Positions 4,066 to 42,966 of a DNA stretch of 44,054 nucleotides are shown piece by piece. A model generated the notes under the pieces. The model was not told the origin of the DNA, did not search any database, and saw only the letters and a list, made by a program, of their open reading frames with translations. The translations under genes and the position numbers were made by a program. The stretch is from the NCBI GenBank assembly GCA_046538155.1, contig JBKHJL010000003.1, positions 1 to 44,054 of the forward strand, written 5' to 3'. Positions within the stretch are counted from its first letter, which is position 1, and the number at the start of each line of letters is the position of its first letter. This stretch comes from Candidatus Micrarchaeia archaeon (GTDB taxonomy: Archaea; Micrarchaeota; Micrarchaeia; Anstonellales; Bilamarchaeaceae).

Positions 4066-4503
4066 ATGCGTTTATTCCTTGAAGCATTTGTTTCAGCCAT
4101 AATAGCGCTCCTGCTGCTGAACTTTTTTGGCATAACCCTCTATACCCTTACTTCACTGACTTCATTTTTCGTGATACTGCTGGTAATACTTATAGTGGAA
4201 GAAAAACTGGGGATATCCAGTGAAAAAGTTATTCAGGAGATGCGGCTGGAACGGCCCATACTCTCCACTGTCCTTGCCTTCATAATACTGATATTAATAG
4301 CACTTGTATTCACAGTAATACACGACAGGATAAGCATTGTAGTTGCACCTTTGGTAAATGCAACAGTTGAGCTCGGACTTATAGGCCTCGCCTTGGTAAT
4401 GGCTGCTGCATACAGGCTATTCTACCACGTGATGTTCAAAAAAATACAACTGGACCCGGGAATAGACCTGGGAATAAAAAGGAAATTCGGCAAAGGGGAA
4501 TAA
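4066..4503 (+). CDS. Hypothetical membrane protein (about 4 TM segments)
   Basis: 145-aa ORF with hydrophobic segments and an upstream TTTTTAAG TATA-like element. Confidence 0.75.
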   Translation: MRLFLEAFVSAIIALLLLNFFGITLYTLTSLTSFFVILLVILIVEEKLGISSEKVIQEMRLERPILSTVLAFIILILIALVFTVIHDRISIVVAPLVNATVELGLIGLALVMAAAYRLFYHVMFKKIQLDPGIDLGIKRKFGKGE

Positions 4504-4505
4504 TC

Positions 4506-6841: not shown

Positions 6842-6846
6842 CTTAA

Positions 6847-7647
6847 TCACAATTCTGATTTCTTTCCTGTGGAATCGCGGGTATACTTGCCGAACTCTTT
6901 TATTTTCAGTGCGAGCTCCCCGGAAATTATGGGTCCGTCTCTGCACATGCAGAGGCCAAGGTCATCAACACAGCACTGCCCGCAGACACCTATCCCGCAT
7001 TTCATGTACCTTTCCATGCTTATCTCGCTGGGAATCCCGGCCTTTTGGGAAATCTCAACCACCTTCTTCATCATTATTTCGGGGCCGCAGCTAAAAACCT
7101 TGTCGATTTTGTGAGTTTTAAGCAGGTATTTCAGCACATCCGGGGAATAGCATTTCGGGCCTTCTGAGCCATCATCAGTGCAGATATGCAACTCTGCTCC
7201 GGCCTGCTTCATGCGCTCCTTGAAAAGAAGGCGTGCGCTGGTGCGGGCACCTTCTATAAAATAAACCTTTTTTCCATGAAGGGTTGCCTGCTCTGCAAGA
7301 TAAGCGAGGGGTGCTGAACCATATCCCCCGCCCACTGTTGCAATGGAAGTGCAATCCTTGGGAAATTTATAGTGGGTTCCAAAAGGGCCCCGGAAACCGA
7401 TTTTATCACCTTTGCCGAGTTTGGAAACAGATTCTGAAAATGGCCCCACAGCACAGACAGTTACCTGGAATTTTCCTTCCTTTTCCCCCGAGATTGAGAT
7501 GGGCTTTTCGCCCTTTCCGGGCAGCCAGAGCATCACGAACTGCCCGGGCTTTGAGTTTAGCTCATGGGGAATGGTAAGGGTGACACTGTCTTCAGATTCT
7601 TTTTGCACATCAGCTATTCTCACTACAGTGAATCTATCATTCTTCAT
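6847..7647 (-). CDS. pyrK: Dihydroorotate dehydrogenase B electron-transfer subunit
   Basis: PGQFVMLW, GGGYG, CGPEIMM and the 2Fe-2S motif MKCGIGVCGQC...C; overlaps the end of pyrD. Confidence 0.93.
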   Translation of the reverse strand: MKNDRFTVVRIADVQKESEDSVTLTIPHELNSKPGQFVMLWLPGKGEKPISISGEKEGKFQVTVCAVGPFSESVSKLGKGDKIGFRGPFGTHYKFPKDCTSIATVGGGYGSAPLAYLAEQATLHGKKVYFIEGARTSARLLFKERMKQAGAELHICTDDGSEGPKCYSPDVLKYLLKTHKIDKVFSCGPEIMMKKVVEISQKAGIPSEISMERYMKCGIGVCGQCCVDDLGLCMCRDGPIISGELALKIKEFGKYTRDSTGKKSEL

Positions 7648-8551
7648 GAACAATACCCCTCATCTCACTTATTGACCTGTACCCCTCCTTCTCCATAATG
7701 TTCTGCATTTCTTCAGAAACCCTGGAGAAAACTTCGGGGCCGCGATAATAAACACCTGTCCCGATTCCCACGGCAGAGGCACCCGCCATAATCATTTCAA
7801 CTGCATCCCTTCCGGTGGTTACCCCACCAGTGCCAATTATCGGGAGCTTTGTTGACTTGTAAATGTCATATACGCATTTCAGGGCAAGAGGCTTGATTGC
7901 CGGGCCAGAGATGCCACCCACCCTGTTGGAAAGCACGGGGCGGGCAGCTTCAACATTTATCAGCATGCCAGGCCCGACAGTATTTATTGCAGTTATGCCG
8001 TCTGCACCTTCCTTGGCAACCGCTTCAGCAATCACCCCAATGGTTGAGACGTTGGGGGAAAGTTTTACCAGCACCGGAATATTGGTGGATTTCTTTACTT
8101 TTTTGGTTACTACTGCTGCAATCCCCGGGTCGCAGGCAAAGGGGCGGCCGAATTCATCCTCCACATTTGGGCAGGAAATATTTACTTCGATTAAGTGAGG
8201 GTTGGCCTTGGAAACTGCTTCGGCGACCTTGCCGAATTCGGTTATTGTGGTTGCAAAAATGGAGGCTATTACTGGGACTCCGGAGTTCTTTACTGCAAAC
8301 TCGAGTTCAGGGAGTGTTTCTTCGGCGCCTGCATTGGAAAGGCCCACTGCATTTATCATTCCCTGGGAATAAGTAGCGATTACCGGGGTGGGGTGGCCCT
8401 TGCGCTCCTTTAGGGAAATGGACTTTGTGGTTACTGCACCTGCGCCAGCCTTTGCAACTGCGGCAAGGGAGGCGCCTGTTACGCCAAGAATTCCGGAAGC
8501 GAGTACCGTGGGATTCTGCAGTTTTGTTCCTGCAACTTCAGTAGAAAGCAT
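7637..8551 (-). CDS. pyrD: Dihydroorotate dehydrogenase 1B catalytic subunit
   Basis: ASG, TTKS, NAVGLSN, EVNISCPN, VKLSPN, AINT and GGISG. Start taken at MLSTEV (8551). Confidence 0.95.
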   Translation of the reverse strand: MLSTEVAGTKLQNPTVLASGILGVTGASLAAVAKAGAGAVTTKSISLKERKGHPTPVIATYSQGMINAVGLSNAGAEETLPELEFAVKNSGVPVIASIFATTITEFGKVAEAVSKANPHLIEVNISCPNVEDEFGRPFACDPGIAAVVTKKVKKSTNIPVLVKLSPNVSTIGVIAEAVAKEGADGITAINTVGPGMLINVEAARPVLSNRVGGISGPAIKPLALKCVYDIYKSTKLPIIGTGGVTTGRDAVEMIMAGASAVGIGTGVYYRGPEVFSRVSEEMQNIMEKEGYRSISEMRGIVHEE

Positions 8552-8627: not shown

Positions 8628-10274
8628 CTATCCCATGGGCATTCCTCCTGGAGGCATACCTCCGGGCGGCATTCCTTCCGGCCCGCCTTTGCCTCCCTTG
8701 GACGCAATTATGTCATCAATCCTGAGGATAAGGCGGGTAGTCTCGGTTGCAGAAGAAAGCGCCTGTGTCTTTACCTTTGCAGGCTCAAGGATTCCCTTTT
8801 CCTCCATATCCGATATCTCTCCCCGGAGTACATCAACTCCAAAACCGTTTCCCTGGTCCTCCTTGTGCTTATTCCTGAGGGAAACAAGGGCGTCTATGGA
8901 GTCCATTCCCGCATTCTCTGCAAGAGTCTTGGGGATGGATTCAAGGGATTCTGCAAATGCCTGGATTGCAAGCTGCTCGCGGCCACCTACTTCCATTGCA
9001 TAGCTGTTGAGCGCGGCCGCAAGGGACATTTCAACGCTGCCCCCTCCTGTCACGTACTTTCCTACCTCCACTGTGCTGGCAACTGAGCCGAGAGCATCGC
9101 GGATTGCCCTTTCAACCTCGGAAACTACATGGTCTGTTCCGCCGCGCACAAACAGAGTGACGGACTTTGGGTCCTTACAGCTGCGCACAAACACCATTGC
9201 CTCTCCTGAAACCTTCTTCTCCTCTACAAGGCCTGCAAAACCAAGGTCGGATTCGGAAACTTCAGAAATGCTTGAAACCGTTTTTGCGCCGGTTGCCCTT
9301 GCAAGCTTCTCCATGTCAGATTTCTTCACCCTGCGCACTGCAAGAATTCCTGCTTTTGCAAGATAATGCTGGGCAAGATCGTCAATACCCTTCTGACAGA
9401 AAAGCACGGTTGCGCCGGATGCCTTTACCTTGTCAACCATCTCTCTGAGCATCTTTTCCTCCTGCTTCAGATAGGCTTCAAGCTGGTCTGGGGAAGTAAT
9501 TTCAATCTTTGCATCGGTTTCCGTCTTTTCCACTTCAAGTGGAGCATCAACAAGTGCAATCTTTGCCTCTTCCGCCTTCTTGGGCATGCCTGAACTCACA
9601 ACCTCCTTGTCAACAAGGATGCCATTTATAAGTTGAGTGTCCATCACGTCCCCACCTGCCTTCTTCTCTATCTTTATCAGGTCGGTATCAACATAGTACG
9701 CTCCATTATGGTCCTCGGCAACCTTGCTGATGGAATCAACAACAAGCTCGGAAATCTTCTTCTTCTCCGCATCGCTTCCGATTCCTTTTGAGCCCATGGA
9801 AACGAGGGAAATTTTATTAAGGATCTCCTTATCTGCAGGAGTAACATCCTTGCCTATTGCCGTAAGGATCTCCTCCGCCCGATTGGCGGCCAGCTCATAA
9901 CCCTTGATTATGGTTGTGGGGTGGATTGACTGGTCAAGCAGGTCCCCTGCTTTCTTGAGAAGGTTCCCTGCAACAACAACAGAAGTTGTTGTGCCATCCC
10001 CCACCTCTTTGTCCTGGGTTTTTGCAATCTCCACCATCAGCTTTGCCGCAGGGTGGTCCACATTCATTTCCTCAAGGATGGTTGCGCCATCATTTGTAAT
10101 TACAATGTCCCCAAGCTCGGAAACAAGCATTTTGTCCATTCCCTTTGGGCCAAGGGTGGTCTTTATGATGTTTGCAACCGCATATCCAATCGCGATGTTT
10201 ATGCGCATCGCGTCTCTTCCAATTACCCGGTTTGAACCTTCGGGCATTACTTCTCCACTATTTACTTTTCCCAT
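8628..10274 (-). CDS. ths: Thermosome (group II chaperonin) subunit
   Basis: [30 protein letters not shown] and a GGM-rich C-terminus. Start taken at MGKVNS (10274). Confidence 0.96.
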
Positions 10275-26688: not shown

Positions 26689-27477
26689 GTGCAGAGATTG
26701 GAAATAAAGATAAATCTGGAAAAAAGAGCCCAGGAAAATGCTGCGGAATACTACCAGGAAGCCAAAAAAGCCAGGAAGAAAAAGGAGGGAGTACTGAATG
26801 CAATAAAGAAAACCAGGAAAAAACTCAGAGAAGTAAAGGAAAGGGGTGTGGGGGGAGAGGAAAAGCAGGTACGTGTGCTGAGGGAAAAAAAATGGTATGA
26901 AAAATTCGGATGGAGTTTCACAAATTCTGGGAAACTGATTCTGTTTGGGAGGAACGCAAAACAGAATGATGCTCTTGTATCATCCCACCTGGAAAAAGGA
27001 GACCTTTTTCTCCATGCGGATATAAAGGGGGGCTCGGCAACAATACTCAAGGGGGGTGAAACATCAGAGGGAGAAGAACTGGAGGAAGCCACATCAATTG
27101 CGGCGAGCTTTTCAAAAGCATGGACAAAAGGTTTCAGCCAGGTGGATGTCTATGCAGTTGAGGCTGGGCAGGTAAGCAAGCATGCACACGGAGGGGCAAT
27201 AGAGTCAGGAGGATTTGCGCTTGAAGGGGAAAGAAGATGGTACAGAAACACACCACTTAAGCTCAGGGCAGGAATTGACGGGGAGGGGAGAGCGGCAGTA
27301 GGGGCACCGGGAGCCGCGTGGATAAAAAAGGGAGTGGAGATTGTTCCGGGAAGGCAGGGGAAGGGGAAGACTGCGAAAATGCTGGGAAAGCTTTTCCAGC
27401 TGGACGAGAATGAGTTTGTGCGGATTCTCCCTTCGGGAACTTTCAGGGTGTTGGGAGTTGGGGAGAAAAGATTGTAA
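26689..27477 (+). CDS. NFACT RNA-binding domain (DUF814/Rqc2-like) protein, short form
   Basis: ENAAEYYQEAKK coiled coil, WYEKFGW, GRNAKQND, LHADIKGGS and GGFALEGERRW. Confidence 0.85.
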   Translation: MQRLEIKINLEKRAQENAAEYYQEAKKARKKKEGVLNAIKKTRKKLREVKERGVGGEEKQVRVLREKKWYEKFGWSFTNSGKLILFGRNAKQNDALVSSHLEKGDLFLHADIKGGSATILKGGETSEGEELEEATSIAASFSKAWTKGFSQVDVYAVEAGQVSKHAHGGAIESGGFALEGERRWYRNTPLKLRAGIDGEGRAAVGAPGAAWIKKGVEIVPGRQGKGKTAKMLGKLFQLDENEFVRILPSGTFRVLGVGEKRL

Positions 27478-27488
27478 CCATGGTTACA
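27473..27488. promoter_or_regulatory. Palindrome TGTAACCATGGTTACA, copy 1 (upstream of purL)
   Basis: Perfect palindrome, extending to 18 bp (27472-27489). It contains the TAA stop of the NFACT gene; TTATAAA follows at 27509. Confidence 0.8.
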
Positions 27489-27550: not shown

Positions 27551-30466
27551 ATGCGGCGAATTGAAGTAAAACCAAGGGGCAGTCTCAGGGACCCTGCCTC
27601 TGCCACGCTGAAAAAAGATATTGGAGCAATGACCGGAAAGGACATTGCTGACCTCATGATAACTAAGTCGTATACCATCGATGCTCAGCTGTCTGATGAA
27701 GAAATGGAAAGGCTGGGTAAAGAGCTTTTCGCTGACACCATTGCTGAGGAATATACCTACAGAGAGCCGGCATACCTCCACACCTGGAGAATAGAAGTCG
27801 GGCTTCTCCCTGGGATGACTGACAATGTGGGCAGGACTGCGAGCACTGCTGTTCAGGATGTGCTTGGAAAACGGCCGGATGTCTATTTTTCAAAAGTATA
27901 TTATGTAGACGGGGAATTTGAAGACGAAACAGTACTTGATGAAATTGCGGAGAAGCTCCTTGCAAATAAAATGATAGAGAGATGGAGGGTCTTCTCTCCT
28001 GAACAAACGGAATTCAGCCCCTTCCCTGCGAAAGTTGAGCTGGAGCATACCCCCAAAGTAGAAAAAATAAACATGGATGTCAGCGCAGGGGAGCTGGAGG
28101 AAATGAGCAGGAAAAGGCTGCTTGCCCTTTCCCCGGAAGAGATGGAAGGGATAAAGGAGTATTACAAAAGAAAGGAGATAATAGAAGAAAGGGAAAATGT
28201 GGGGCTGGACAGCCGTGCAACAGATGTTGAGCTTGAGGCCCTTGCCCAGTCCTGGAGCGAGCACTGCAAGCACAAGATATTCAACTCAGAAATAGAATAT
28301 TATGAGAATGGGGAAAAGGTTGAAGAAATAAACTCCATTTTCAGCACCTACATAAAAGGAGCAACGGAAAGGGCGATGAAACCATATGTGGTTTCCGTTT
28401 TCAAGGACAATGGAGGAATAATAAAATTCAACCTTGAGCATGATGTTGCAGTAAAGGTGGAGACACACAATGCCCCTTCAGCACTGGACCCCTACGGGGG
28501 CGCAATAACCGGCATACTTGGGGTAAACCGTGATGTTCTTGGCACAGGGATGGGGGCAAAGCCTGTTGCAAACATGGACATGCTCTGTTTTGGATACCTT
28601 GATGAAAAAGAAGTTCCGGATGGGGCTATGCACCCAAAGCGCATAGCAAAAGGAGTAGTAAAGGGAATAGAAGGGGGCGGAAACCCTGTAGGGATACCTA
28701 CAGTAAACGGCTCCATAACATTTGAAAAATGCTATGCCGCACGGCCCCTTGTATATGCAGGCACAGTGGGAATAATGCCCAACCAGGTCAACGGAAAGCC
28801 TTCATCAGAAAAAGAGGTTGAGCCGGGAAGCCTGGCGGTCATGGTAGGCGGTAGAATAGGAAAAGACGGGATACACGGGGCAACATTTTCATCCCAACAA
28901 CTTACTACAGAAGTGAGCTCAAGCGTTGTCCAGATAGGCGATGCGATAACCCAGAAAAAAGTAATAGACCTTGTGCTGGAAGCACGGGACAGGGGGCTGT
29001 TTGATGCAATAACTGACAATGGGGCAGGGGGGCTGTCATCCAGCATAGGGGAGATGGCCCAGTTTTCCGGGGGATGTGAAATTTACCTGGACAAATGCCC
29101 CCTGAAATACAAAGGACTTGACCCCTGGGAAATACTGCTTTCAGAATCACAGGAAAGAATGACACTTGCGATTCCCAGGGAAAAATGGAAGGAGCTGCAG
29201 AAGCTTGCGGAAAAGCACGATGTGGAAGCAACAGTTGTGGGTACATTTACGGACAGCGGATACTTCCACATCATGTATAATGAAGAAACAGTGGGATACC
29301 TGAGCATGGAATTCCTGCATGAAGGAATGGGAAAACTAAAGCTTAAGGCCAGCTGGGAAGAAAAGCTGCAGCCTGAGCCAAACCTTACAGAAACAGACCC
29401 GAATGAAATACTTCTGCGGCTTCTTGCTGCCCCGAACATCGCTTCAAAGGAGTGGGTGATAAGACAGTATGACCATGAGGTGCAGGGAGGAAGTGTAATA
29501 AAACCGGTCATGTGCGGAAACGGGACCTCGGACGGAGGGGTGATAAGGCCGCTTCTGGACTGCCAGGAAGGCCTGGTTATAAGCCATGGAATCTGCCCCA
29601 GGCAGGTTGAGGACTCTTACCACATGGCCCAGCTTGCGGTAGATGAAGCAGTGAGAAATGCTGTTGCTTCCGGAGCAATGTTCGGCTACCTCGCGGGGCT
29701 GGACAACTTCTCCTGGCCTGACCCGGTAAAATCCGAAAAGAACCCTGATGGAGATTACAAACTTGCCCAGCTGGTGCGCTGTGCAAAAGGCCTGCATGAT
29801 GCAGCAGTTGCTTACAGGATTCCTTTAATTTCCGGAAAAGACAGCATGAAAAACGATTATTATTCCGGAGGAGAGAAATATTCCATAAACCCCACCCTGC
29901 TGGTAACCATAGTGGGCAAAATACAGGATATTGAAGAGTCGGTTACCTGCAATTTCAAGAACCCGGGTGATTCCATATACCTCCTTGGAAAAACCAGGGG
30001 TGCGCTCGGGGGCAGTGAATACTACAAGGCATACGGAGGAGTTGGAAACGGGATGCCAAAAGTGGACCTGGAAGCTAACTCTTCACTTTACAATGCAGTT
30101 TCAAAGGCAGCGGCCGATGGGCTTCTCAGCTCTGCCCATGATGTTTCTGATGGGGGGATCGCTGTGGCCCTGGCAGAATGCACAATGGGGGGATTGCGGG
30201 GGGCAGATTTTGAAATCAGAGAAGCAGAAAGCGAAACAGAAGACGAAAGGGCGTTTCTGTTTTCAGAGGACCCGGGGCGTTTCATTGTAAGCGTCTCCTC
30301 GGAAAATGAAAACCGATTCAGGCAGATATTCTCCGGGCTTCCCGCTGCAAAAGTGGGCAGGGTTCGGGGGGACAAGAGAATGGTTATACGGAAGGATGGA
30401 AAGATGATTGTGAACCAGGATGTCATGGAAATGAAAGCGCTTTGGAGGAGGGCATTGAAATGGTAG
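27551..30466 (+). CDS. purL: FGAM synthase PurL with N-terminal PurS-like modules
   Basis: QSWSEHCKHKIF, KVETHNAPS, GRIGKDGIHGA, DNGAGG, LSESQERM, QYDHEV, SGKDS and HDVSDGG. Confidence 0.95.
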   Translation: MRRIEVKPRGSLRDPASATLKKDIGAMTGKDIADLMITKSYTIDAQLSDEEMERLGKELFADTIAEEYTYREPAYLHTWRIEVGLLPGMTDNVGRTASTAVQDVLGKRPDVYFSKVYYVDGEFEDETVLDEIAEKLLANKMIERWRVFSPEQTEFSPFPAKVELEHTPKVEKINMDVSAGELEEMSRKRLLALSPEEMEGIKEYYKRKEIIEERENVGLDSRATDVELEALAQSWSEHCKHKIFNSEIEYYENGEKVEEINSIFSTYIKGATERAMKPYVVSVFKDNGGIIKFNLEHDVAVKVETHNAPSALDPYGGAITGILGVNRDVLGTGMGAKPVANMDMLCFGYLDEKEVPDGAMHPKRIAKGVVKGIEGGGNPVGIPTVNGSITFEKCYAARPLVYAGTVGIMPNQVNGKPSSEKEVEPGSLAVMVGGRIGKDGIHGATFSSQQLTTEVSSSVVQIGDAITQKKVIDLVLEARDRGLFDAITDNGAGGLSSSIGEMAQFSGGCEIYLDKCPLKYKGLDPWEILLSESQERMTLAIPREKWKELQKLAEKHDVEATVVGTFTDSGYFHIMYNEETVGYLSMEFLHEGMGKLKLKASWEEKLQPEPNLTETDPNEILLRLLAAPNIASKEWVIRQYDHEVQGGSVIKPVMCGNGTSDGGVIRPLLDCQEGLVISHGICPRQVEDSYHMAQLAVDEAVRNAVASGAMFGYLAGLDNFSWPDPVKSEKNPDGDYKLAQLVRCAKGLHDAAVAYRIPLISGKDSMKNDYYSGGEKYSINPTLLVTIVGKIQDIEESVTCNFKNPGDSIYLLGKTRGALGGSEYYKAYGGVGNGMPKVDLEANSSLYNAVSKAAADGLLSSAHDVSDGGIAVALAECTMGGLRGADFEIREAESETEDERAFLFSEDPGRFIVSVSSENENRFRQIFSGLPAAKVGRVRGDKRMVIRKDGKMIVNQDVMEMKALWRRALKW

Positions 30467-33765: not shown

Positions 33766-33798
33766 TAACTAATTAAATAATTTGTGAGATATAAAACT

Positions 33799-36700
33799 AT
33801 GAATACTAAAATTCTGCTTGTTTTATTAGTGGGCTTGGTTTGTGTGGGGTTTTCTGCTTCTGAGGAATACCCCCGGCCCTGGGAAAACGACACCTGGCTG
33901 CAGGAAAACCCATATGCAGCAAGCTTTTTTGAAATGCCTGCCCTTGCTTCTTCGGGCTCAATGCTTGAGGAAGAAGACAGGGAAGCGCTTGAGGATCTTC
34001 TTCAGACAACTGTTCCTGATTTCCAGAACAGCCTGGAAGAGCTGCAGCTGGAAAAGGTTAAATCTGGGATCTCCCTGCGTAGGGAAAATGCATCATACAT
34101 TAGTGCTGCCGCAGAAAAAAAAGAAGATGCGGCAGAAATAAAGCTTGATGTTGAGGACCTAGTTCCGGGAAAGTGTAGCTGGGACATATTTACGTATCCC
34201 TGGGACTGGACAGACTGTGCAGAATATTCCCTCCTCGGGCTGGAGAAGTATGGAGAAAAGGTAAATGGGAAGAGGGCAGAGTTTGAGGTGTGGAGAGAAA
34301 AACTTGTATACGGCGGGGTGTGCAATGACAATTATACCGGAGGTGGAAGTGAATACTGTGGAATGCCTCTGGAGGATGTTGAGTGTGAAATTTCAGAGAT
34401 ATGGAATGCAGTACCCGGGTTTTCCTGGTATTACGGGTGCGTGGAAGAGCACTGGAGCACGATTGACGCACTTGATGAGAAGATAGACAGCATAAACCAG
34501 ACCTACCGGGAACTGGGTGATTCCTGCGAAGAGGGGAAAGCACTTGCAGAAGAGAAAAAGGGGCTTGTGGAAGATGTTGTTTCTGAAATGGAGCAGGAAG
34601 AGATAAGCAGGATATACCGGAGCAGCTATGGGGAGAGCAACAGCCGGGCCCAGGGGATTAGGGGAGAATATGAAGAACTCATAGGAATAAAGGAACTTGC
34701 GGACGAAGCCTTCCAAAGGGCAGAAAATGCTGAAGAGGGGGACAGGGGATGGATAAATGACTGTATAATGGGGAGCGGAACCGCGGTTTCAGGTTATACT
34801 GTGATTGCCCAGAGCGGGATAATGGATGAGGCTGAAGAAGTTGTCTGGGAGTATGGGGAAGAAGCGGAGGAACTGCTGGAAGAGGCAAAAGCAATGGAAA
34901 ATAAAATGGGGGAAAGAGGAAAGGCCTGGCTGGAGGATGCAAAGGGCTACTGCCGCATCGGAAGTTCGGGGAGCTTGGGGGAGCGCTTTGAAGATTATGG
35001 AAAGTGTAAGAAATATGCAAACATGGCCCTGAATTCTGCAGAGCAGGAGGAGGGGGCAGAAGAAGCAATAATAACCGAGGAGCTGGAGTGGCTGGAGGAA
35101 TTCATAGAAAAGGCGAAGGCAGATGGAATAGACACCCATACTGAAGAAGTGCAATATGCGCTGCTGGAGCAGACAATGCCCTCCAACTATCAGGAAATAA
35201 TTGAAAACATAGAAGAAGGAATTCTGGAAAAGGCGGAAAACAGGTATGGGGACCTGCCTGAAAGAAGGGCATATATCCTTGACCAGATAAGCATGGACGG
35301 CTCTAAGCCGAGTTTCCTTGAAACCTGGCTAAAGGGAGAGGAGTGCTATGATGGGGATGAACTTGATTACCGCTGCGCACTGGGGACGCTTTCCGAAATA
35401 GAGGAATCATATGATGAGATAGAAGCAGAATTTATGGCAAACAGGAATTCGCTTGTGCAGAACTCTATTATTGTTGATGCTTATGAGCAGATTGGCATAC
35501 CTGCACTGGACGGCAACACGAGCCAGTATCTCTATGTGGACATAAAGAACCCCACTAAATATTCTGGAGAAGGAGTAACTGTAGAAGCACATACAGATGT
35601 GGAATACCGGAAGATTGACCTGGTCCGGGGAAAAGAAGAAGTAAGGTTGGTAACCCCGAAAAGAGGCAGGATTGAAATAGAGCTTACAGAGATAAACGCA
35701 AGTGAGACGATATCCCTTATCTTCAAAAAAGAAGGAATTGTCTGCAGGACAAAAAAGCATGAAGAAGAAGCGGAGGGAGACAGTGAAGGCGGGGCAGACG
35801 TGAAGCATGAGATAAAGATTTCCTGTGAAGAGGATGTCGGAGGGTTGATAATCGGGGATTATCCAGGTGTGGAAAGCGTAACCATTGATGGGATAACCGT
35901 CCCATACACAGGAGATGGGATAGCCCGGCCTCTTGCAAAAGGAACACATACCCTGGAACTGTACACCCATGATTATGATGCATATGACGTTGAAAGGGGG
36001 GTCTCCTTCATAACAACCTTCGGGCAGACCACCAATGTGGAGCTATTCTTCACCTTCCATCCAAAGAGAGACCTGGAATATATTGCATATTCAAGTACAG
36101 AAGAGGGAAAGGGAATGGAGGAAATTGATATTTTTGGTTACACTGGGGAGAGGATCACAGAAAAAAACATAATCGGGGAAAGCACTGTGTTTTTCAAGGT
36201 GCACGACCTTGAGGCAGGAAAGCCAACGAAAGTCAGGGTAAGCTACGAGATGAACAACCTTGAGGAGTATGTTAATGAGCAGGTACTGCTTTACCAGGGG
36301 ATGAACCTGAGCAGCGGGGAAACTGCAATCCTGGAGGAAACACTGACATACCTCCAGCAGGGTGATGAGGAAAGCGCTTATGAAAAAATAGAAGACCTCA
36401 GGGATTTGGTTGAGAACAGGGAGAAAAAAGAAGAAAACGTGCTGAAAAAACATGAAAAACTGAAGGAAGAGATGGAAGAGAAAATAAGCCAGTTAGAGAA
36501 TGCTCTGCAGGTTGCAGAAAACCTCGGGGTAAACAATACTTATACCCGGGAAATGGAGGCACGGGTGACTGAGCTGCGCAGTGCTATTGAAGAAGACGTT
36601 CCGGAAGGGGCCCTGATAAGCCCGCTTGAAAGTATAGACAAGGGATGGGAAAAAAAGAAGATAACCAAGATATCCAAAGCACTGCTGAACAGGGAAAAAG

Positions 36701-37470
36701 AGATAAAAGAAAGATGGGCGGACACAGGTTATTACGGAGAGAATACTGAGGAGGCTATCACTGAAGTAGAAGAGAAAAACAGCCAGTTCTCGGGAAGCCT
36801 CAATCTTGACGATGCAATGGAGGCATTTGATGCGGCGCTCAGGGCAGAAGCGGTGCTGGATGCGGCAGAAGAAAGCAAATCTGAGGAAGATATGGTAATG
36901 GAGGCGGCCCTTGAGGAAATTGTAGCTGAAGCATATGATGTGCTTGAGGAGTATACACGGGAATACGAAGAAGCCGATGAAACCCATCTTGAAGGCAACT
37001 TTCTGCTTAAGCCATATGAAGTGAGCAGATACCTGAAAAAAGCAGATGAAACAGAAAACTGTGGGGAAACAATAGGGGAAATTGAAAAAATGACAGGAAA
37101 GATGGAGGGAACCCTTGAACTCCTTAAAAACGAGGAGGAGAGGCTCGGGGAAAATCTGGAGGCGCTCTACGGGAAGCAGAAAGAAAACATGGCAGACAAG
37201 GACCGGAACTTTGTGGAAAGCGCAATGGCAACCGCAGAAAACTATGCAGGGAACGGAGAATATGTGCGGGCAATAAAAAGCCTGGAAGCAGGCCTGGACA
37301 AGATGAAGAACTTTGAGCGGAAGCAGGACGGCCTGCTCATACTCGCGATTACCGGTCTTTTGGTACTGGGGATAGTCGGGCTCTATCTGATGAGGGAAAG
37401 AATCCCGCCCAATATCCTGGGGCAGGGTAAAAAAGAGAAAACATACAGAAAGCTTAAGAGGGAGCAATGA
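33799..37470 (+). CDS. Large acidic cell-surface protein (signal peptide, Cys-containing helical region, beta-rich middle, long coiled coil, C-terminal TM plus basic tail)
   Basis: N-terminus MNTKILLVLLVGLVCVGFSA; C-terminal LLILAITGLLVLGIVGLYLM followed by KKEKTYRKLKRE. Confidence 0.8.
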   Translation: MNTKILLVLLVGLVCVGFSASEEYPRPWENDTWLQENPYAASFFEMPALASSGSMLEEEDREALEDLLQTTVPDFQNSLEELQLEKVKSGISLRRENASYISAAAEKKEDAAEIKLDVEDLVPGKCSWDIFTYPWDWTDCAEYSLLGLEKYGEKVNGKRAEFEVWREKLVYGGVCNDNYTGGGSEYCGMPLEDVECEISEIWNAVPGFSWYYGCVEEHWSTIDALDEKIDSINQTYRELGDSCEEGKALAEEKKGLVEDVVSEMEQEEISRIYRSSYGESNSRAQGIRGEYEELIGIKELADEAFQRAENAEEGDRGWINDCIMGSGTAVSGYTVIAQSGIMDEAEEVVWEYGEEAEELLEEAKAMENKMGERGKAWLEDAKGYCRIGSSGSLGERFEDYGKCKKYANMALNSAEQEEGAEEAIITEELEWLEEFIEKAKADGIDTHTEEVQYALLEQTMPSNYQEIIENIEEGILEKAENRYGDLPERRAYILDQISMDGSKPSFLETWLKGEECYDGDELDYRCALGTLSEIEESYDEIEAEFMANRNSLVQNSIIVDAYEQIGIPALDGNTSQYLYVDIKNPTKYSGEGVTVEAHTDVEYRKIDLVRGKEEVRLVTPKRGRIEIELTEINASETISLIFKKEGIVCRTKKHEEEAEGDSEGGADVKHEIKISCEEDVGGLIIGDYPGVESVTIDGITVPYTGDGIARPLAKGTHTLELYTHDYDAYDVERGVSFITTFGQTTNVELFFTFHPKRDLEYIAYSSTEEGKGMEEIDIFGYTGERITEKNIIGESTVFFKVHDLEAGKPTKVRVSYEMNNLEEYVNEQVLLYQGMNLSSGETAILEETLTYLQQGDEESAYEKIEDLRDLVENREKKEENVLKKHEKLKEEMEEKISQLENALQVAENLGVNNTYTREMEARVTELRSAIEEDVPEGALISPLESIDKGWEKKKITKISKALLNREKEIKERWADTGYYGENTEEAITEVEEKNSQFSGSLNLDDAMEAFDAALRAEAVLDAAEESKSEEDMVMEAALEEIVAEAYDVLEEYTREYEEADETHLEGNFLLKPYEVSRYLKKADETENCGETIGEIEKMTGKMEGTLELLKNEEERLGENLEALYGKQKENMADKDRNFVESAMATAENYAGNGEYVRAIKSLEAGLDKMKNFERKQDGLLILAITGLLVLGIVGLYLMRERIPPNILGQGKKEKTYRKLKREQ

Positions 37471-37482
37471 GGGTGTGGTAGG

Positions 37483-38094
37483 ATGCAGGGATGGCAAACT
37501 CTTCTGGCAATTTTCGTAATTGCCTTCATAGTTCAGCTGGGAGTACCTGGGTTTACAGAAGGATTGTATTTTGACCCATCAAACCTGATGCCATGGATGT
37601 TCATTACCAGCTGTTTCCTGCACGGGGGGCTGATGCATCTTTTCTTCAATTCATTTTCCCTGCTTATTTTCGGGCCCTACCTGGAAAGGGAAATCGGCAC
37701 AAAAAATTTCCTTTTGCTCTTCCTGGCTGCAGGAATAGCAGGAAACATTACCTATTACATTACAATCATAATGGAAATCATTCCTTTGGTACCTGCACTC
37801 GGGGCAAGTGGGGGAATCTTTGGGATACTGGGTGCACTTGCAATGCTCAGGCCGGACATGCGGGTTTTTGTGTTCTTTATTCCCATGCCCATACAAGCGG
37901 CTGCGGCACTCTGGTTCGTGCTTGAGCTCATGGGTTCATTTAACCCGGGCTCAGGAATAGCAAATGCTGCACACCTTGGAGGTCTCATACTGGGGCTGGC
38001 TTACGGAACGTATTATGAAAGGAAACGGAGGGAGGAATTTGTGTTCCAGCACAGTGGAGATGCCAGCGGGGGCTGGGACGGGGACTATATCTAA
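37483..38094 (+). CDS. Rhomboid family intramembrane serine protease
   Basis: FLHGGLMHLFFN, GASG (catalytic Ser) and AHLGG (catalytic His). Confidence 0.93.
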   Translation: MQGWQTLLAIFVIAFIVQLGVPGFTEGLYFDPSNLMPWMFITSCFLHGGLMHLFFNSFSLLIFGPYLEREIGTKNFLLLFLAAGIAGNITYYITIIMEIIPLVPALGASGGIFGILGALAMLRPDMRVFVFFIPMPIQAAAALWFVLELMGSFNPGSGIANAAHLGGLILGLAYGTYYERKRREEFVFQHSGDASGGWDGDYI

Positions 38095-39578
38095 AGGAAT
38101 TTGTTTAGAGTATTCTGCCCGGCTTTCTTCCCTTCTGGCTTTGTGGGCATTTCGGACGTTGTGTTCTGCATTCGGAATTTGTCCCTGAAAGACAGGAGAA
38201 CCTCTTTCATTTTCTTCTCTCTTTTTCTTGAAGCCCAATAATAATACTCATCTCTTGTTTTGCGGGTCATGAGAACATAAACAGCGCCTTCCTTCATTCT
38301 TCCTGCCCTCCCTCTCCGCTGGATAGTCCGTATCTCGCTGGGTATGGGTTCATAGAAAATAACCGCATCCACTTCAGGGATGTCCAGACCCTCCTCTCCT
38401 ATAGAACTTGCAACAAGGATGTCAAACTCTCCCTTGCGGAAAGAATCCATGGTTTCCTCCTGCATCTTCCTGTTGAAATTCTTTCTTTTGCCCATAAAAG
38501 ATTTTGCACGAAACCCGCGCCGGTCCATCTCCGCGCTTATTTCTTCTATCTGGTCCCTGTACTGGACAAATATTATGACTTTCTTTTCCCTGAGCTTAGC
38601 CATTATTGAAAACAGCTTTTCCATTTTTGGGTGTTCCCCGGCCTTCTCAAGCAGGGAAACTACTTTTGATATTTCTGTGTTTTTGGAAACGGCAGCTGCT
38701 GATTTTGAATCAGATGTACGCAGCTTTTCCAGGTATCTGAACACCGGAACCTTTCCCTGGGTTTCAAGGAGCTCCTGGAGGTGGAGAATGTGGAGCAGGC
38801 AGCTGTAGAGATAAATTACACGGTATTTCATGGGGTGTTTTATTCTCATTATGCGGGGACGCAACTCAAGAAAGGCCTTTTTGGAAGAAAGGCAGGGGCG
38901 TATTCCCATGTTTTTCAGGAGCTTTGCCTGTTTTGTTGCGTAGGAAGCCAGTATTTCCTTTGCCTCAAGATATGAGCTGGTGAGAGTTACCGGCACCCAT
39001 TCCTGCTTCATCCTCTTTATATATGGAAGAACATCGGGGTCGGAATTTGTCCTTACCTCTACATTCGTTATCCTGAGACTGTCAAGGACTTTCTTTATCT
39101 TGGCGCGGTCCCCCCCAGGAGAAGCAGTTAGGCCTATTATTTTTGCTGTTTCGGGCAGACCTTCAGCTATTTTTACATAGGCGTAATCCCCCACTGCTCG
39201 ATGGGCCTCGTCAAATACTGCAAGAGATATTTTGTCAGAAGGAAAAATCCCTTTTTTCATATCATTCCGTATTGTCTGGGGTGTTGAAGAAACAACCCTG
39301 TTCTTGTAAAGCACGGTGCGTTTTTTTGGGGTGTTTTCACCAGTAACCAGTGCAGAACCGCCTTCCACTTCACCCAAAACACTCTTTATTGTGTTGCTGT
39401 GCTGGCGGGCAAGGGGCTTTGTGGGGGTAAGGAAAATGCATTTTCCTGGTGTGTTTTCCATCATTGCCAGGGCTATCAGTGTTTTGCCCAGGCCAGTAGG
39501 AAGCACAACAAGGGTGTTGCCATTTTCCTTTATAGATTGTATTATCTTTTTCTGGTATTCCCTGGGCTGAAGCTTCAT
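38091..39578 (-). CDS. hef: Hef/FANCM-like SF2 helicase without the ERCC4 nuclease domain, ending in a PIP box
   Basis: PREYQ, LPTGLGKT, DEAHRAVG, LTASPG, EEGLDIP, QRRGRAGR and C-terminal QNTLNKFL. Confidence 0.9.
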   Translation of the reverse strand: MKLQPREYQKKIIQSIKENGNTLVVLPTGLGKTLIALAMMENTPGKCIFLTPTKPLARQHSNTIKSVLGEVEGGSALVTGENTPKKRTVLYKNRVVSSTPQTIRNDMKKGIFPSDKISLAVFDEAHRAVGDYAYVKIAEGLPETAKIIGLTASPGGDRAKIKKVLDSLRITNVEVRTNSDPDVLPYIKRMKQEWVPVTLTSSYLEAKEILASYATKQAKLLKNMGIRPCLSSKKAFLELRPRIMRIKHPMKYRVIYLYSCLLHILHLQELLETQGKVPVFRYLEKLRTSDSKSAAAVSKNTEISKVVSLLEKAGEHPKMEKLFSIMAKLREKKVIIFVQYRDQIEEISAEMDRRGFRAKSFMGKRKNFNRKMQEETMDSFRKGEFDILVASSIGEEGLDIPEVDAVIFYEPIPSEIRTIQRRGRAGRMKEGAVYVLMTRKTRDEYYYWASRKREKKMKEVLLSFRDKFRMQNTTSEMPTKPEGKKAGQNTLNKFL

Positions 39579-39675
39579 TAAACTAATTATTCCTCTTCAG
39601 GTTTAAAAACAATGAGGGGGTGTGTTTCCACTATTCCCGGTTTGATTTTCCAGTAAAGTAATAATTAAAAATATA

Positions 39676-39691
39676 TGTAACCATGGTTACA
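39676..39691. promoter_or_regulatory. Palindrome TGTAACCATGGTTACA, copy 2 (between the TATA-like element and the ATG of the Cas2-like gene)
   Basis: Perfect 20-bp palindrome TATGTAACCATGGTTACATA at 39674-39693, with the ATG at 39696. Confidence 0.8.
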
Positions 39692-39695
39692 TACA

Positions 39696-39929
39696 ATGTT
39701 AGTATACCTATACGATATCAAGTCTTCTGTTGAAGAATATAACAGAATAAAACGAAATTTTTACTATCATCTTAACAAAAATGGCTATAATAAGTATTTC
39801 TGGAAAACGAAGTCTGTGTTGGTCGTACCTGAGGAGATGGAGCAGGTTATTGACGGATTTTTTCATTCTTTCTCTGGCTCAGTCGTAGTTTATAAAATAA
39901 TAACTGATTCAATTGAAGAGCTGGAATAG
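39696..39929 (+). CDS. Stand-alone Cas2/VapD-like small protein
   Basis: 77 aa. It starts LVYLYDI, continues with helix RIKRNFYYHL, then WKTKSVLVV, matching the Cas2 pattern 'YDI...R...L...QxSV'. No cas1 or array in the window. Confidence 0.65.
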   Translation: MLVYLYDIKSSVEEYNRIKRNFYYHLNKNGYNKYFWKTKSVLVVPEEMEQVIDGFFHSFSGSVVVYKIITDSIEELE

Positions 39930-39950
39930 TGGAAATGAGGGGTCTCCTGC

Positions 39951-41513
39951 CTATTCCACTAATTCTTTTACATCCAGTTCACAAAGTGCAACAGGGTATT
40001 CCAGACCATATTTTTTTAGTACTTCGGGATGCACTGAACCAATAACCCCTGCCTTTTCTCCATCCAGGAAAACTTCAGCACACCTTCCTTCTATAAAACA
40101 AGAGTCTTTGCCCTGCTTTAGCTTAATCCCTTTACCTACCCATTTTGACAGTGTCTGGAGGAAGGCCTGGAGAGTCGTAAGTGAGGCGTTGTCCCCCATA
40201 ATTCCAAAACAAAGGCTTTCTTTTTCTTCCCCGTTGTATATTTTTCCACACTCGTAGATTTTTTGCGGCAGCCCCATCATCTTATTGGTTGAAAAACATT
40301 CCATTATACCTGAAACAAGAGTTGTTCTCAAATGGGTAAATTCCTCGGATGCAGAGTTTTCTATTACAAGTGCCCCCTTTTCCTTCCCCACCTTCCCGAG
40401 CTTTTCAGGATTTGTGAGAAAATAATTTTTTACTTCCAGGAACTCCATGCCCGTAAGCGCACTGTGCAGAGGCTCCAGCCTTCTGTTTTCTTTGCCCGTA
40501 GTTGTAAGCTGGGGGAGGGTTGGCTCCAGCCTCTCATATCCATATCCTATTGCAATATCTTCTATTATATCAGTAAAGGAGAGTATGTCTGCCCTGTATG
40601 GGGGCACAATTGCCTGCTCCCCTTCAACAGGAATCCCCATTTTCTGCAGGCAGGTTTTTCCTTCCTCCAAATCCAGTTTAATCCCAAGCACCCTTCCTGC
40701 CTCCTCCATATCCACTTCTATTTTTTCTTCGGTAAAATCCGGGTGGGTTTCCCCATTAATTTTAACCTGGAATAGCTCTCCTCCCCTGTCCGCGAGCGCA
40801 GTAGCTATTATGTTTACGGTTTTCCTCACAGTTTCCCTTGAGGTTCCTGTTGCTTCTACAAGCAGGTTCTTTGTTTTTTCCGTTACCCGCGTCCGTTCAC
40901 TGTTTATTACAGGAGGGAAGGACACCACGCCTTTTTCATCTTTAATTAACACTGCTTTTCCTTCCGGTACAAGGTGCGCATACGCCCTTCCCTTTGGGTG
41001 TTTTTCTAGCACCTCCCGGATGTCCATCTCCTCCTCCATTTCCAGGGGGACCAGCTTTTCCCCCCGTGCAACAGTATACCTCATTTTCCCGGATATATTG
41101 TCCAGGTCGTGTATTCCCACCGCAACCTTCTTTCTTTTCCGCCCAATTGTCTGGTGCAGTTTTTCCTGCATCTGCATCAGGTCTTCCAGCAGCTCATCAT
41201 CAATATTCAGCCCTTTAACTACAGCTGCGGAAACCTCAGGCCTTACTTTCCGTGTTTCATCTGAAACTTCCATTGAGTAATCTGATTTTTCAGCCACATA
41301 TTCAGGAATCTTTTTATCATAATATGCAGTGACTGCACGGACAATTCCCTCTACGCAAAAGAGGTCCGGCCGGTTTGGGGTTATCTCAACAACAACTTCT
41401 CCCTCCTCTTCTTCCACAGGCATACCTATATTGGTAAGGCACTCAATGATTTCGGATTCGGTGCGCCCGGTCATCTTTTCCAGTTTTTTGAAATCAGCAT
41501 TTATATTTGCCAT
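39951..41513 (-). CDS. pheT: Phenylalanine-tRNA ligase beta subunit (archaeal type)
   Basis: EITPNRPDL, QEKLHQTIGRKRKK, SFPPVINS, PPYRADI...DIIEDIAIGYGY and GSVHPEVL. Start taken at MANINA (41513). Confidence 0.94.
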   Translation of the reverse strand: MANINADFKKLEKMTGRTESEIIECLTNIGMPVEEEEGEVVVEITPNRPDLFCVEGIVRAVTAYYDKKIPEYVAEKSDYSMEVSDETRKVRPEVSAAVVKGLNIDDELLEDLMQMQEKLHQTIGRKRKKVAVGIHDLDNISGKMRYTVARGEKLVPLEMEEEMDIREVLEKHPKGRAYAHLVPEGKAVLIKDEKGVVSFPPVINSERTRVTEKTKNLLVEATGTSRETVRKTVNIIATALADRGGELFQVKINGETHPDFTEEKIEVDMEEAGRVLGIKLDLEEGKTCLQKMGIPVEGEQAIVPPYRADILSFTDIIEDIAIGYGYERLEPTLPQLTTTGKENRRLEPLHSALTGMEFLEVKNYFLTNPEKLGKVGKEKGALVIENSASEEFTHLRTTLVSGIMECFSTNKMMGLPQKIYECGKIYNGEEKESLCFGIMGDNASLTTLQAFLQTLSKWVGKGIKLKQGKDSCFIEGRCAEVFLDGEKAGVIGSVHPEVLKKYGLEYPVALCELDVKELVE

Positions 41514-42885
41514 ATGGGTCCCTCTTCTCCTTTGCTTTCTTTTCAGCCGCAGGAGTAACATACTCTCCGGTCACACAGCCAAAACAACCGTTTTCCCCAA
41601 CTGCTTTTTTCAGCCCGTCCAGGCTTATGTAATGGAGGCTGTCCACTCCAAAGAAATCTCTTATTTCCTTCACGCTTTTGTTATTTGCTATCAACTCATC
41701 ATAAGTGGGCATATTTATTCCGTAAAAACAGGGGGAGATTACCGGAGGACAGGTTATGCGCAGGTGAATCTCCTTCGGCCCGCAGTTCTTAAGCACGCGG
41801 ACTATTTCTTTCATCGTTGTGCCACGCACGATACTGTCATCAAACAAAACAATCTTTTTTCCCTGGATTATCTGCCTGATAGGGTTTACCTTCATTCTCA
41901 CTGCCTTTTTTCTGCTCTCCTGGTCAGGCATTATGAAGGTCCTGCCAATGTATCTGTTTTTTATTATTCCTTCCGTGTATTCTACTCCGGTTTCCTTTGC
42001 AAACCCAAGGGCGGCGCTTCTTGAAGTGTCAGGAACAGGGATTACAAGGTCTGCATCAACCGGGGCTTCCTCTGCAAGCTGCTTTCCGAGCTCTTTCCTT
42101 ACCTGTTCCACAAGTTTTCCGTTTATTATGGAATCAGGCCGGGAAAAATAGACATATTCAAACATACAGTGCCTGGCTCCTTTGTTCAGAAGAGTCTTTT
42201 TTTTCATGTTTCCGTTTTCATCAACTATTGCCAGTTCCCCTGGCTGTATTGAACCGGAGTAAGGGACCAGGTTCATGTCCAGGCCTGTGGATTCAGAACA
42301 GAATATTATATTGTTTTCATCTTCGCCGTAGGTAAGGGGCCGTATCCCATGGGGGTCCCTGAAGATAAAGACTTTCCTGTCGTATATTCCGACAACCGAG
42401 TAAGCACCATCAAGCTTTTCCATTGCATGGAGCACCGCCCCTTCCAGGGTTGCTCCTTCCCGCAGTTTGTCTGCCATGAGATAGAGGATGGCTTCTGAGT
42501 CAACAGTTCCCTCAAAAACATAGTTTTTTTCCTCCAGCCCCTTTCTTATTTCAGAATAGTTTGTGATGTGCCCGTTGTGGGCAACGGAAATACCGCCTGA
42601 AATGGATGGCTGGATATCCCTGAGCGTTGCTGTTTCAGTTGTAGGGTAGCGTGTGTGGCCTATTCCGGCCCAGTGAGGCTGGACAAGGTCTTTTTCCTGG
42701 ATGACTTCTGCAACCAGCCCCACCCCTTTTTTCTTATAGAATGAGCCATCATACAATACCATGCCTGCGGCATCCTGCCCCCTGTGCTGGACACCAACCA
42801 TTGCCCGGTAAACAGCCGGTGCAACCCGGGATTTGTTTTTTGAGATGACCGCCACTATGCCGCACTCTTCCTTTACTTCATCCAT
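41494..42885 (-). CDS. purF: Amidophosphoribosyltransferase
   Basis: EECGI (Ntn Cys after a propeptide), QHRGQD, GHTRY, HNG, CMFEYVYFSRPDS, DDSIVRGTT, and Fe-S cysteines CFYG and CFGC. Confidence 0.96.
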   Translation of the reverse strand: MDEVKEECGIVAVISKNKSRVAPAVYRAMVGVQHRGQDAAGMVLYDGSFYKKKGVGLVAEVIQEKDLVQPHWAGIGHTRYPTTETATLRDIQPSISGGISVAHNGHITNYSEIRKGLEEKNYVFEGTVDSEAILYLMADKLREGATLEGAVLHAMEKLDGAYSVVGIYDRKVFIFRDPHGIRPLTYGEDENNIIFCSESTGLDMNLVPYSGSIQPGELAIVDENGNMKKKTLLNKGARHCMFEYVYFSRPDSIINGKLVEQVRKELGKQLAEEAPVDADLVIPVPDTSRSAALGFAKETGVEYTEGIIKNRYIGRTFIMPDQESRKKAVRMKVNPIRQIIQGKKIVLFDDSIVRGTTMKEIVRVLKNCGPKEIHLRITCPPVISPCFYGINMPTYDELIANNKSVKEIRDFFGVDSLHYISLDGLKKAVGENGCFGCVTGEYVTPAAEKKAKEKRDPYGKYKC

Positions 42886-42950
42886 TAATTCACCAGACAA
42901 GCAAGAATACTCTTCTTAGGGTATGGGAGTTTTATAAGCATTATAGGTCT

Positions 42951-42966
42951 TGTAACCATGGTTACA
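42951..42966. promoter_or_regulatory. Palindrome TGTAACCATGGTTACA, copy 3 (upstream of purF)
   Basis: Perfect 16-bp match. It contains the minus-strand TAA stop of the Nre gene; TTATAAA lies on the minus strand at 42937-42931. Confidence 0.8.

Follow-up and report, generated by a model that had tools for sequence, protein, structure and literature searches.

A 77-residue, putatively Cas2-like protein of Micrarchaeota co-occurs with a palindrome in its own promoter and may regulate genes through it

What does a small protein that resembles Cas2 do in an archaeon where no CRISPR system accompanies it? The 44,054-nt stretch of Candidatus Micrarchaeia archaeon DNA analysed here (the window, which is contig C27 of a 0.97-Mb, 89% complete genome, hereafter G000) carries a gene for a 77-amino acid (aa) protein, which we call X, and a perfect 20-bp palindrome directly upstream of it. 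An initial annotation of this DNA had described X as a stand-alone protein of the Cas2/VapD kind, possibly repurposed for sequence-specific binding or cleavage of nucleic acid at that palindrome. We lean, with only slight preference, towards X being an autoregulated, dimeric, sequence-specific DNA-binding regulator whose regulon varies between lineages.

The open reading frame (ORF) that had been predicted is real, with N-terminus MLVYLYDIKSS and C-terminus IEELE. It begins at 39696; the start first proposed, 39661, takes in the upstream promoter and the palindrome. The palindrome, whose wider arms are imperfect, ends 2 nt before the ATG. No GGTG precedes this ATG, an A/T box lies about 27 nt ahead of it, and the X mRNA is plausibly leaderless, as far as can be read from the letters.

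The palindrome is a regular feature of X genes. In the 60-nt upstream regions of 60 X loci, its consensus is TGTAAC-YATR-GTTACA, taking the form TGTAAC-(CATG or TATA)-GTTACA nearly throughout, and the half-site GTAAC hardly varies. Within -100 to +5 of the match start, GTAAC-N4-GTTAC occurs without mismatch in 31 of the 60 loci, with at most one mismatch in 46 and with at most two in 51. Once gene starts were corrected, 54 of 59 X genes had a site with two mismatches or fewer within 200 nt upstream. The gap between site and start codon in these 54 is 0-12 nt or a slight overlap in 35 (two sites overlap the start codon itself), 23-37 nt in 15, where a GGTG often precedes the ATG, and 67-116 nt in four. 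Across X loci, A+T makes up 83% of the 15 nt preceding the site, compared to a background of 55%. Because the gap varies while the A+T-rich box stays directly upstream, the site appears to track the promoter (TATA box, 5-8 nt, site) and not the start codon, and it would sit between the TATA box and the transcript start. The site upstream of X is kept across differing neighbours (Hef or a Rad50-like protein). We rejected an RNA element as its explanation: there was no Rfam family (the best match, E 0.22, was an unrelated viral untranslated region), the hairpin energy was unremarkable (z -0.52), and in most X loci the inferred transcript begins at the palindrome or downstream of it.

X and the site also occur together across the phylum. 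We counted exact 14-mer sites in 301 Micrarchaeota genomes, where the reversed pattern, used as a control, gave 0-7 per genome. At least 6 exact sites were present in 24 genomes, 23 of which carry X; in the remaining one (G292), the contig stops inside pheT, where X should come next. The X-less genomes other than G292 have 0-3 sites, like the control. The sole exact 14-mer in the entire genome adjoins X in 12 genomes (G288, G243, G143, G283, G118, G287, G156, G236, G110, G247, G001 and G081), and for G288, G287 and G156 this holds for the 16-mer too, with matches at up to two mismatches at the control level. A natural co-loss points the same way: G017 (genus g2, 95% complete) has neither X nor a 16-mer site at one mismatch or fewer, and the DNA downstream of its pheT (L139, 1-420), read by eye, contains no X-like ORF. 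X is present in its congeners G014 (2 sites) and G032 (8 sites).

Within G000, we found 17 perfect 16-mers, all with a CATG centre, compared to about 1.0 expected from composition (10 specified bases). Fourteen lie outside ORFs in a genome that is 87% coding (binomial P ~1e-10). Five precede the purine-biosynthesis genes purF, purS-purL, purN, purE and purP, whose starts are about 40-100 nt away. Other starts next to a site belong to HisRS with a divergent nucleotide-kinase-like gene, PriL, a ferredoxin, a GT2 glycosyltransferase, Pop5, an ATP-grasp protein with a beta-CASP nuclease, a Fic protein and small ribbon-helix-helix (RHH)-like genes. From site centre to mechanically called start, the distance is mostly 42-70 nt at these targets and 12 nt at X, and at the targets a TATA-like box can be read 10-35 nt downstream of the palindrome.

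Similar spacing recurs in other families. In G031 (family f6) it is 41 nt for Hef, 47 for PurE, 62 for Nre and 9 for PCNA, and in G006 (f12) it is 43-59 nt for several genes. The sets of site-adjacent genes in G031 and G006 differ and include PCNA, Nre, GlmS, Fic, GatD, proteasome alpha, a Pelota-like protein and ABCE1. The sites at X, purF and purE are kept in place across genera and families; the exact purF-upstream site is found at the equivalent position (+3235 to +3361) in 8 related loci. Taken together, site placement, genome copies, co-occurrence and the loss in G017 strongly back the functional tie between X and the palindrome that the initial annotation had suggested. Cleavage at the palindrome, which it had also considered, finds no support, as the sites are conserved at orthologous promoters and not avoided.

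We note that the association with purine genes does not make X part of the pathway. X is present without PurE in f15 (X 4/4, PurE 0/4), f18 (X 5/5, PurE 0/5), f5 and most of f6, and PurE is present without X in f13 (X 0/7, PurE 7/7), f14 and f20. As the distributions of X and PurE disagree in several families, X is not tied to the pathway, which argues against a role as a purine-pathway enzyme or subunit.

The distribution of the sites bears on a second explanation, namely that the palindrome is the operator of a different, conventional factor and that X, merely its most conserved target, is a small ferredoxin-fold protein that does something else, for instance sensing a ligand in the manner of PII/ACT proteins or acting as a Cas2/VapD-like ribonuclease. 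X does lack a recognised DNA-binding domain, and in genus g23 the perfect site is not beside X. However, in the 12 genomes whose only exact site is beside X, such a factor would have one non-self target. In addition, no gene besides X carries the site in all of G000, G031, G006 and G014, the X-less G017 is without any site, and the site-rich genomes all fall within X-bearing clades. We consider this explanation unlikely, though it is the alternative that we take most seriously, and we return to it below with the fold of X.

Not every copy of the site sits at a promoter. Eight of the 17 sites in G000 form four pairs, 0.7-1.4 kb apart, around accessory genes (loci L063-L066; the four cassettes are listed in Table 1). 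At the position of the C9 cassette, G184 and G258 (C29) have contiguous flanks with one palindrome between convergent 3' ends; in G037 this position holds another gene and one palindrome, and the C9 cassette recurs elsewhere in that genome, starting at a palindrome. For the C20 cassette, the flanks are contiguous in G037 and G070, overlapping by 16-17 bp; G258 and G082 are also without it, and G184 has part of it. In both of the two cassettes tested, then, the cassette sits at a pre-existing palindrome that has been duplicated. Small modules of this kind, often carrying toxin-antitoxin genes and bounded by a short palindrome that pre-exists in the host replicon, are familiar as pdif modules and other elements that exploit Xer recombination. 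The C9, C20, C23 and C26 cassettes match that description; the site here, in contrast, is no known Xer site, no recombinase was identified, and the same site is mainly a promoter element.

Recombination at the site, which is repeated, could account for the cassette pattern, and we give a part in recombination, played by the site or by X, a low probability. In the strongest form of this idea, X would cleave DNA site-specifically as a nuclease, or would recognise DNA as one subunit of a machinery for recombination or integration that acts at the palindrome and inserts cassettes with duplication of the site, like Cas2 in the Cas1-Cas2 integrase. The tight pairing of sites around the RHH plus MazF-like, RHH-like, methyltransferase and Fic cassettes, the contiguous single-palindrome flanks in congeners, the reappearance of the RHH-MazF cassette at another palindrome in G037, and an invariant Asp7 at the predicted dimer interface of X would all fit. 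Against this, there is no Cas1 or casposase in G000 at 89% completeness, none of the cassettes encodes a recombinase, and strand transfer is beyond a 77-aa protein alone. Moreover, the positional conservation of the sites at X, purF and purE fits regulation, and in most genomes with X the sites number one or very few and cassettes are not seen. We therefore regard such a machinery as decidedly improbable.

We also examined the X family itself. A near-length search returned 16 homologs of 77-80 aa (47-100% identity), and an exhaustive search of representatives returned 58 proteins at E<=1e-3, 19 of them at <=1e-10. The species genomes yielded 60 X loci; all titles that name a lineage name one within Micrarchaeota, and three say only 'archaeon'. 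X was found in 123 of the 301 sampled genomes, in single copy (one genome has it in two pieces). It is near-universal in families f1 (59/64), f2 (22/23), f12 (6/7), f15 (4/4) and f18 (5/5), and was not found among the sampled genomes of f10 (0/75), f11 (0/54), f13 (0/7) or f14 (0/15). Across 59 sequences, D7, K19, R20, F22, Y23, Y24 and S40 are invariant, and Y4, Y6, Y15, N16, T38, K39, D53, F55, F56 and K67 are at least 90% conserved. The YDI motif and the KSV variant of QxSV to which the initial annotation had drawn attention are thus borne out, as Y6-D7-I8 and as the S40-containing KTKSV. Nine longer database entries, fetched as candidate fused forms, proved to be N-terminal low-complexity extensions, wrong starts or read-through, with no added domain. 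A viral or mobile origin was rejected, as no relative was present among viral contigs, and an ESM Atlas search returned only unnamed 'hypothetical protein' clusters. In the literature outside subscription journals, we found no description of the X family, the palindrome motif or a Cas2-like archaeal regulator. X most likely represents a new protein family within a known functional class.

Two gene orders surround X. In the first, hef-X-pheT-purF, Hef is present in 26, PheT in 25 and PurF in 20 of the 60 loci, and X is divergent from Hef. In the other, SAM (S-adenosylmethionine) synthetase comes before X, which is followed by a Rad50-like ATPase. In this second clade (loci L020-L054, e.g., L039, 5188-7566), X is directly upstream of and co-oriented with a Rad50-like SMC ATPase of about 765-790 aa. 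The neighbours of X in both clades (Hef and the Rad50-like protein) are DNA-repair genes.

Is X, then, a Cas2? The AlphaFold2 (AF2) model, built on a 16-sequence alignment, is confident (predicted local distance difference test (pLDDT) 94.5; predicted TM-score 0.81) and ferredoxin-like, with a strand at residues 2-8, a helix at 12-28, a short helix at 31-34, a strand at 38-44 (with 35-36 preceding it), a helix at 46-58 and a strand at 63-69. Foldseek against the Protein Data Bank (PDB) gave nothing below E 1e-3. Cas2 or Cas1-Cas2 entries made up 26 of the 32 matches shown, the best being 5g4d (E 1.0e-3, 26% identity) followed by 2i0x (23% identity), with the VapD entry 6zn8_B at rank 45. In a wide VIA-align search, the Cas2 chain 8ia4_A came first (Z 7.0, root-mean-square deviation (rmsd) 2.8 A over 74 residues), a narrow lead, as TM1266, SBDS-C, ACT, CutA and Lrp-RAM domains followed within 1 Z.

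A second look with VIA-align gave Cas2 chains Z 6.6-7.2, with 74 of 77 residues aligned at rmsd 2.7-2.9 A, and VapD 6zi0 and 3ui3 Z 5.8-6.1. PII/PstA-like signal proteins, which are trimeric and bind nucleotides with a T-loop, reached Z 6.0-7.6, with the top value for SMU.1657c (69 residues aligned), over only 68-70 residues at rmsd 3.4-4.0; the oligomer tested for X was the homodimer. The model is thus confidently ferredoxin-like, and its best full-length matches are Cas2 chains, but these tie with PII, ACT and other ferredoxin-like folds (Z 6.6-7.6). This tie, together with the invariance of D7, the counterpart of the metal-binding Asp of Cas2, is what a sensor or ribonuclease role under the control of another factor would draw on.

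Sequence comparison gave less. Pfam returned 0 families at E<=10 for the window X, and among 59 relatives a single one matched CRISPR_Cas2, at E 0.014 and below the cut-off; NCBIfam gave only a spurious NosD match (E 0.028). Comparing 59 X sequences to 30 canonical Cas2 sequences of the same phylum, hhalign reported a probability of 7.9% over 43 columns. A single-sequence phmmer search found a weak match to Cas2 PF1117 (2i0x; E 0.86, residues 2-69), and profile searches of PDB sequences with the 16- and 59-sequence alignments found no Cas2 and nothing relevant. In both the phmmer and hhalign alignments, D7 of X aligns with the Y-D of Cas2. Because Pfam, NCBIfam, phmmer and hhalign provide no solid sequence link, membership of X in the Cas2 family is not established; the case for a Cas2-like fold with YD and SV motifs is fair. 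We also considered a PurS paralogue, suggested by the pur regulon and the ferredoxin-like fold, and rejected it, as hhalign against the PurS domain of the window gave a probability of 0.7%.

X shares with Cas2 a length of about 80-90 aa, a ferredoxin-like beta-alpha-beta-beta-alpha-beta core in its model, a first strand ending in Y-D-I with an invariant Asp, and an S-V motif that opens the central strand. It differs in about 10 extra residues between helix 1 and the central strand, in its own conserved set (N16, K19, R20, F22, Y23, Y24, K37-S40, D53, F55 and F56), and in its single-copy gene, which is inherited vertically and coupled to a specific palindrome. With VapD, the endoribonuclease toxin of VapXD, it would share the Cas2-like fold, but it is a core gene without an antitoxin partner, and the structural match is weaker than that to Cas2. 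X being single copy, vertically inherited and without a partner, it is unlikely to function as a VapD-like toxin. PaaX carries its Cas2-like domain between an N-terminal winged helix-turn-helix (HTH) and a C-terminal helical domain; the X homologs, in contrast, are about 77-80 aa, and none has an HTH. The absence of an HTH, noted initially for the window copy, was borne out by Pfam and by inspection of the longer entries, and there is no fused domain either.

Independence from CRISPR was likewise supported. G000 yielded no match to Cas1 (PF01867), a six-frame search for Cas2 (PF09827) was empty, and a crude k-mer scan revealed no CRISPR array; its sole candidate, C6:15960-16300, was rejected as an apparently coding, GT-rich imperfect tandem repeat with a 48-nt period. 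In the loci examined, X never adjoins cas1 or arrays, its neighbours being Hef/PheT/PurF or SAM synthetase/Rad50-like. Could X be a decayed CRISPR Cas2, or the remnant of a VapD-type toxin, without a function of its own? Its YDI and S-V motifs, the weak phmmer match to PF1117 and the dominance of Cas2 entries in Foldseek are reminiscent of such an origin. Nevertheless, X is intact at about 77 aa, single copy in 123 genomes and invariant at seven residues, it has no partner gene and no relatives among viral contigs, and canonical Cas2 is present in 41 of the 301 genomes at loci other than that of X. A functionless remnant is barely credible.

X is predicted to form a symmetric homodimer. The prediction passed its test with a score of 0.44, the best of 3 controls scoring 0.00; this mark is reached by 20 of 30 proteins solved as one-chain pairs and by 1 of 23 solved as single chains. 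Contact agreement between runs was at least 93% and the pLDDT of the partner at least 77. The predicted interface comprises residues 3, 5, 7, 37-38, 41, 53, 56-57, 60, 64-70 and 72-77, with 73-76 pairing onto 64-68 of the partner, presumably much as in the Cas2 dimer; helix 1, which bears N16, K19 and R20, lies outside it. Cas2 dimers have been solved, and the pass may partly reflect likeness to them.

Based on this information, we propose the following mechanism. X, as a small symmetric homodimer with a Cas2-like ferredoxin fold, would act as a sequence-specific transcription factor on double-stranded DNA, each subunit reading one GTAAC half-site of TGTAAC-YATR-GTTACA. To read the DNA, X would probably use the K37-T38-K39-S40 turn together with helix 1 residues that are exposed, invariant and polar or basic (N16, K19, R20 and Y23/Y24). 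In the X promoter, whose mRNA would be leaderless or have a short leader, the site would fall after the TATA box and ahead of the transcript start, and because of this position bound X would block recruitment of RNA polymerase and repress its own gene. At target promoters, where the site is centred about 42-70 nt from the start codon and upstream of a TATA-like box, the geometry would be that of an activator or of a regulator acting at the level of TBP/TFB. The targets in the genus of the window would include the five purine-biosynthesis genes and genes for DNA replication or repair; other lineages would have a different regulon, or X alone as target. Both the sign of regulation and the residues that read the DNA are what we infer from these positions and from conservation.

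A conserved dyad-symmetric site in a gene's own promoter, recurring at other promoters, is as found for autoregulated palindrome-binding factors. In SurR and TrmBL1, a palindrome downstream of the TATA box represses and one upstream activates, and the regulator has a site in its own promoter. The two site geometries at X and at its candidate targets follow the same logic; SurR and TrmBL1, however, use a winged helix or HTH and are several times larger, and X has neither domain. A precedent for the fold class comes from the DNA-binding domains of papillomavirus E2 and EBNA1, dimers of ferredoxin-like fold in which a helix recognises a palindrome whose halves stand 4 bp apart (ACCG-N4-CGGT). Neither the sequence comparisons nor the fold searches connected them to X, and the dimers differ in form, E2 being a beta-barrel and X a predicted strand-swap type.

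Several observations weigh against X being such a regulator. X contains no known DNA-binding fold such as HTH or RHH, the fold searches did not single out any DNA-binding domain of the ferredoxin-like type, and binding of the palindrome is deduced from co-occurrence and position. Five of the 59 X genes lack a site with two mismatches or fewer within 200 nt: L028, L029 and L046 have palindromic variants with 3 mismatches at the usual place, and in L021 and L038 no site could be recognised within 200 nt upstream of X. In genus g23, the X-proximal site is degenerate (L028, L029 and L046) or missing (L021). The one exact site lies elsewhere in the genome in G012, G025, G207, G221, G212 and G182; the perfect site of genus g23 (G012:C10:25090 and G025:C1:67239; loci L101 and L103) is intergenic, between a small PRC-barrel-like gene and a gene for 186-189 aa, a position kept in both genomes. 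At target promoters, the TATA boxes were placed by eye. At least one site (C9:865), like its 'empty' orthologues, lies between convergent 3' ends and outside a promoter, and as 8 of 17 sites flank accessory cassettes, some copies may serve recombination and not regulation. Finally, the X family is basic (median isoelectric point (pI) 9.6), but the window copy is its most acidic member, at pI 5.6. Window DNA was matched in microbial-mat and salt-lake metagenome runs, and the acidity may be a halophilic adaptation to a hypersaline source.

The features of the locus and the related sites are collected in Table 1. The window X gene is visibly AT-rich, as had been noted, with a G+C content of 0.28-0.33 over 39600-39899 compared to 0.43-0.50 in the flanking genes. 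Because the Hef-type helicase and pheT that flank it are both on the minus strand, X is monocistronic, as initially described. The start of the Hef-type helicase is 106 nt from the palindrome centre.

Table 1. Coordinates of X, its promoter elements, neighbouring genes, further sites and site-bounded cassettes (window positions unless a contig of G000 is named)
Feature	Position	Strand	Basis or remark
X gene, 77-aa protein with putative Cas2 fold	39696..39929, stop codon included	+	ORF list, homologs, AF2
Perfect 20-bp palindrome TATGTAACCATGGTTACATA, proposed operator between TATA box and X transcription start	39674..39693 (16-bp core 39676-39691)	.	sequence
A/T-rich TATA-like box of the X promoter	39665..39673	+	sequence; TATA function inferred
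Hef-type helicase	38091..39578	-	Pfam ResIII/DEAD/Helicase_C; divergent from X
pheT	39951..41561	-	convergent with X
Short inverted repeats, possible shared 3' end element	39922..39961	.	8-nt arms, 100% complementary
Second 16-bp core, upstream of purF, just beyond the stop of the Nre gene	42951..42966	.	exact match
purF (amidophosphoribosyltransferase), proposed target	41494..42900	-	Pfam GATase_6/7 + Pribosyltran
Third 16-bp core, 70 nt (centre to start) upstream of purS-purL	27473..27488	.	exact match
purS-purL fusion (FGAM synthase), proposed target	27551..29974	+	Pfam PurS + FGAR-AT_linker + AIRS + AIRS_C
RHH-like + MazF-like cassette	C9, 168/865 (168-880)		paired palindromes
RHH-like cassette	C20, 9315/10074 (9315-10090)		paired palindromes
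Methyltransferase cassette	C23, 4321/5033 (4321-5050)		paired palindromes
Fic cassette	C26, 6610/7966 (6610-7980)		paired palindromes

Three further observations concern the window. The inverted repeats at the 3' ends of X and pheT are two overlapping perfect 8-nt repeats that cover the convergent stops of both genes. The purS-purL gene is one 807-aa ORF, with PurS (Pfam, residues 3-70) fused N-terminally to PurL (linker, AIRS, AIRS_C). At 33784-37470, a 1228-aa ORF encodes a very acidic, E/D-rich protein with an N-terminal signal-like segment and, at the C-terminus, a hydrophobic anchor followed by basic residues; it looks like a halophile surface protein.

To our knowledge, gene regulation in Micrarchaeota, which are hard to culture, is essentially uncharted. 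If X binds the palindrome, it would represent a transcription-factor family that is built on a Cas2-like ferredoxin fold and makes do without HTH, RHH or zinc ribbon; with its 77 aa, X would rank with the smallest specific regulators known. Such binding would also provide the first defined regulator-operator pair and regulon for this DPANN phylum, and would show the Cas2 fold at work outside CRISPR. With the proposed operator and target promoters located, the link to purine genes can be tested directly. The cassettes with a palindrome at either end suggest a simple way of capturing genes in these reduced genomes. In a broader and, in our judgement, improbable version, a Cas2-derived, CRISPR-independent X would define a 16-bp 'address' that serves both as the operator of a growth-related regulon (purine, replication, repair) and as a landing pad for cassettes with duplication of the site. 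If this were true, it would be reminiscent of the repeat duplication in CRISPR spacer integration, pointing to a possible evolutionary link between Cas2-type DNA handling and regulation or cassette capture.

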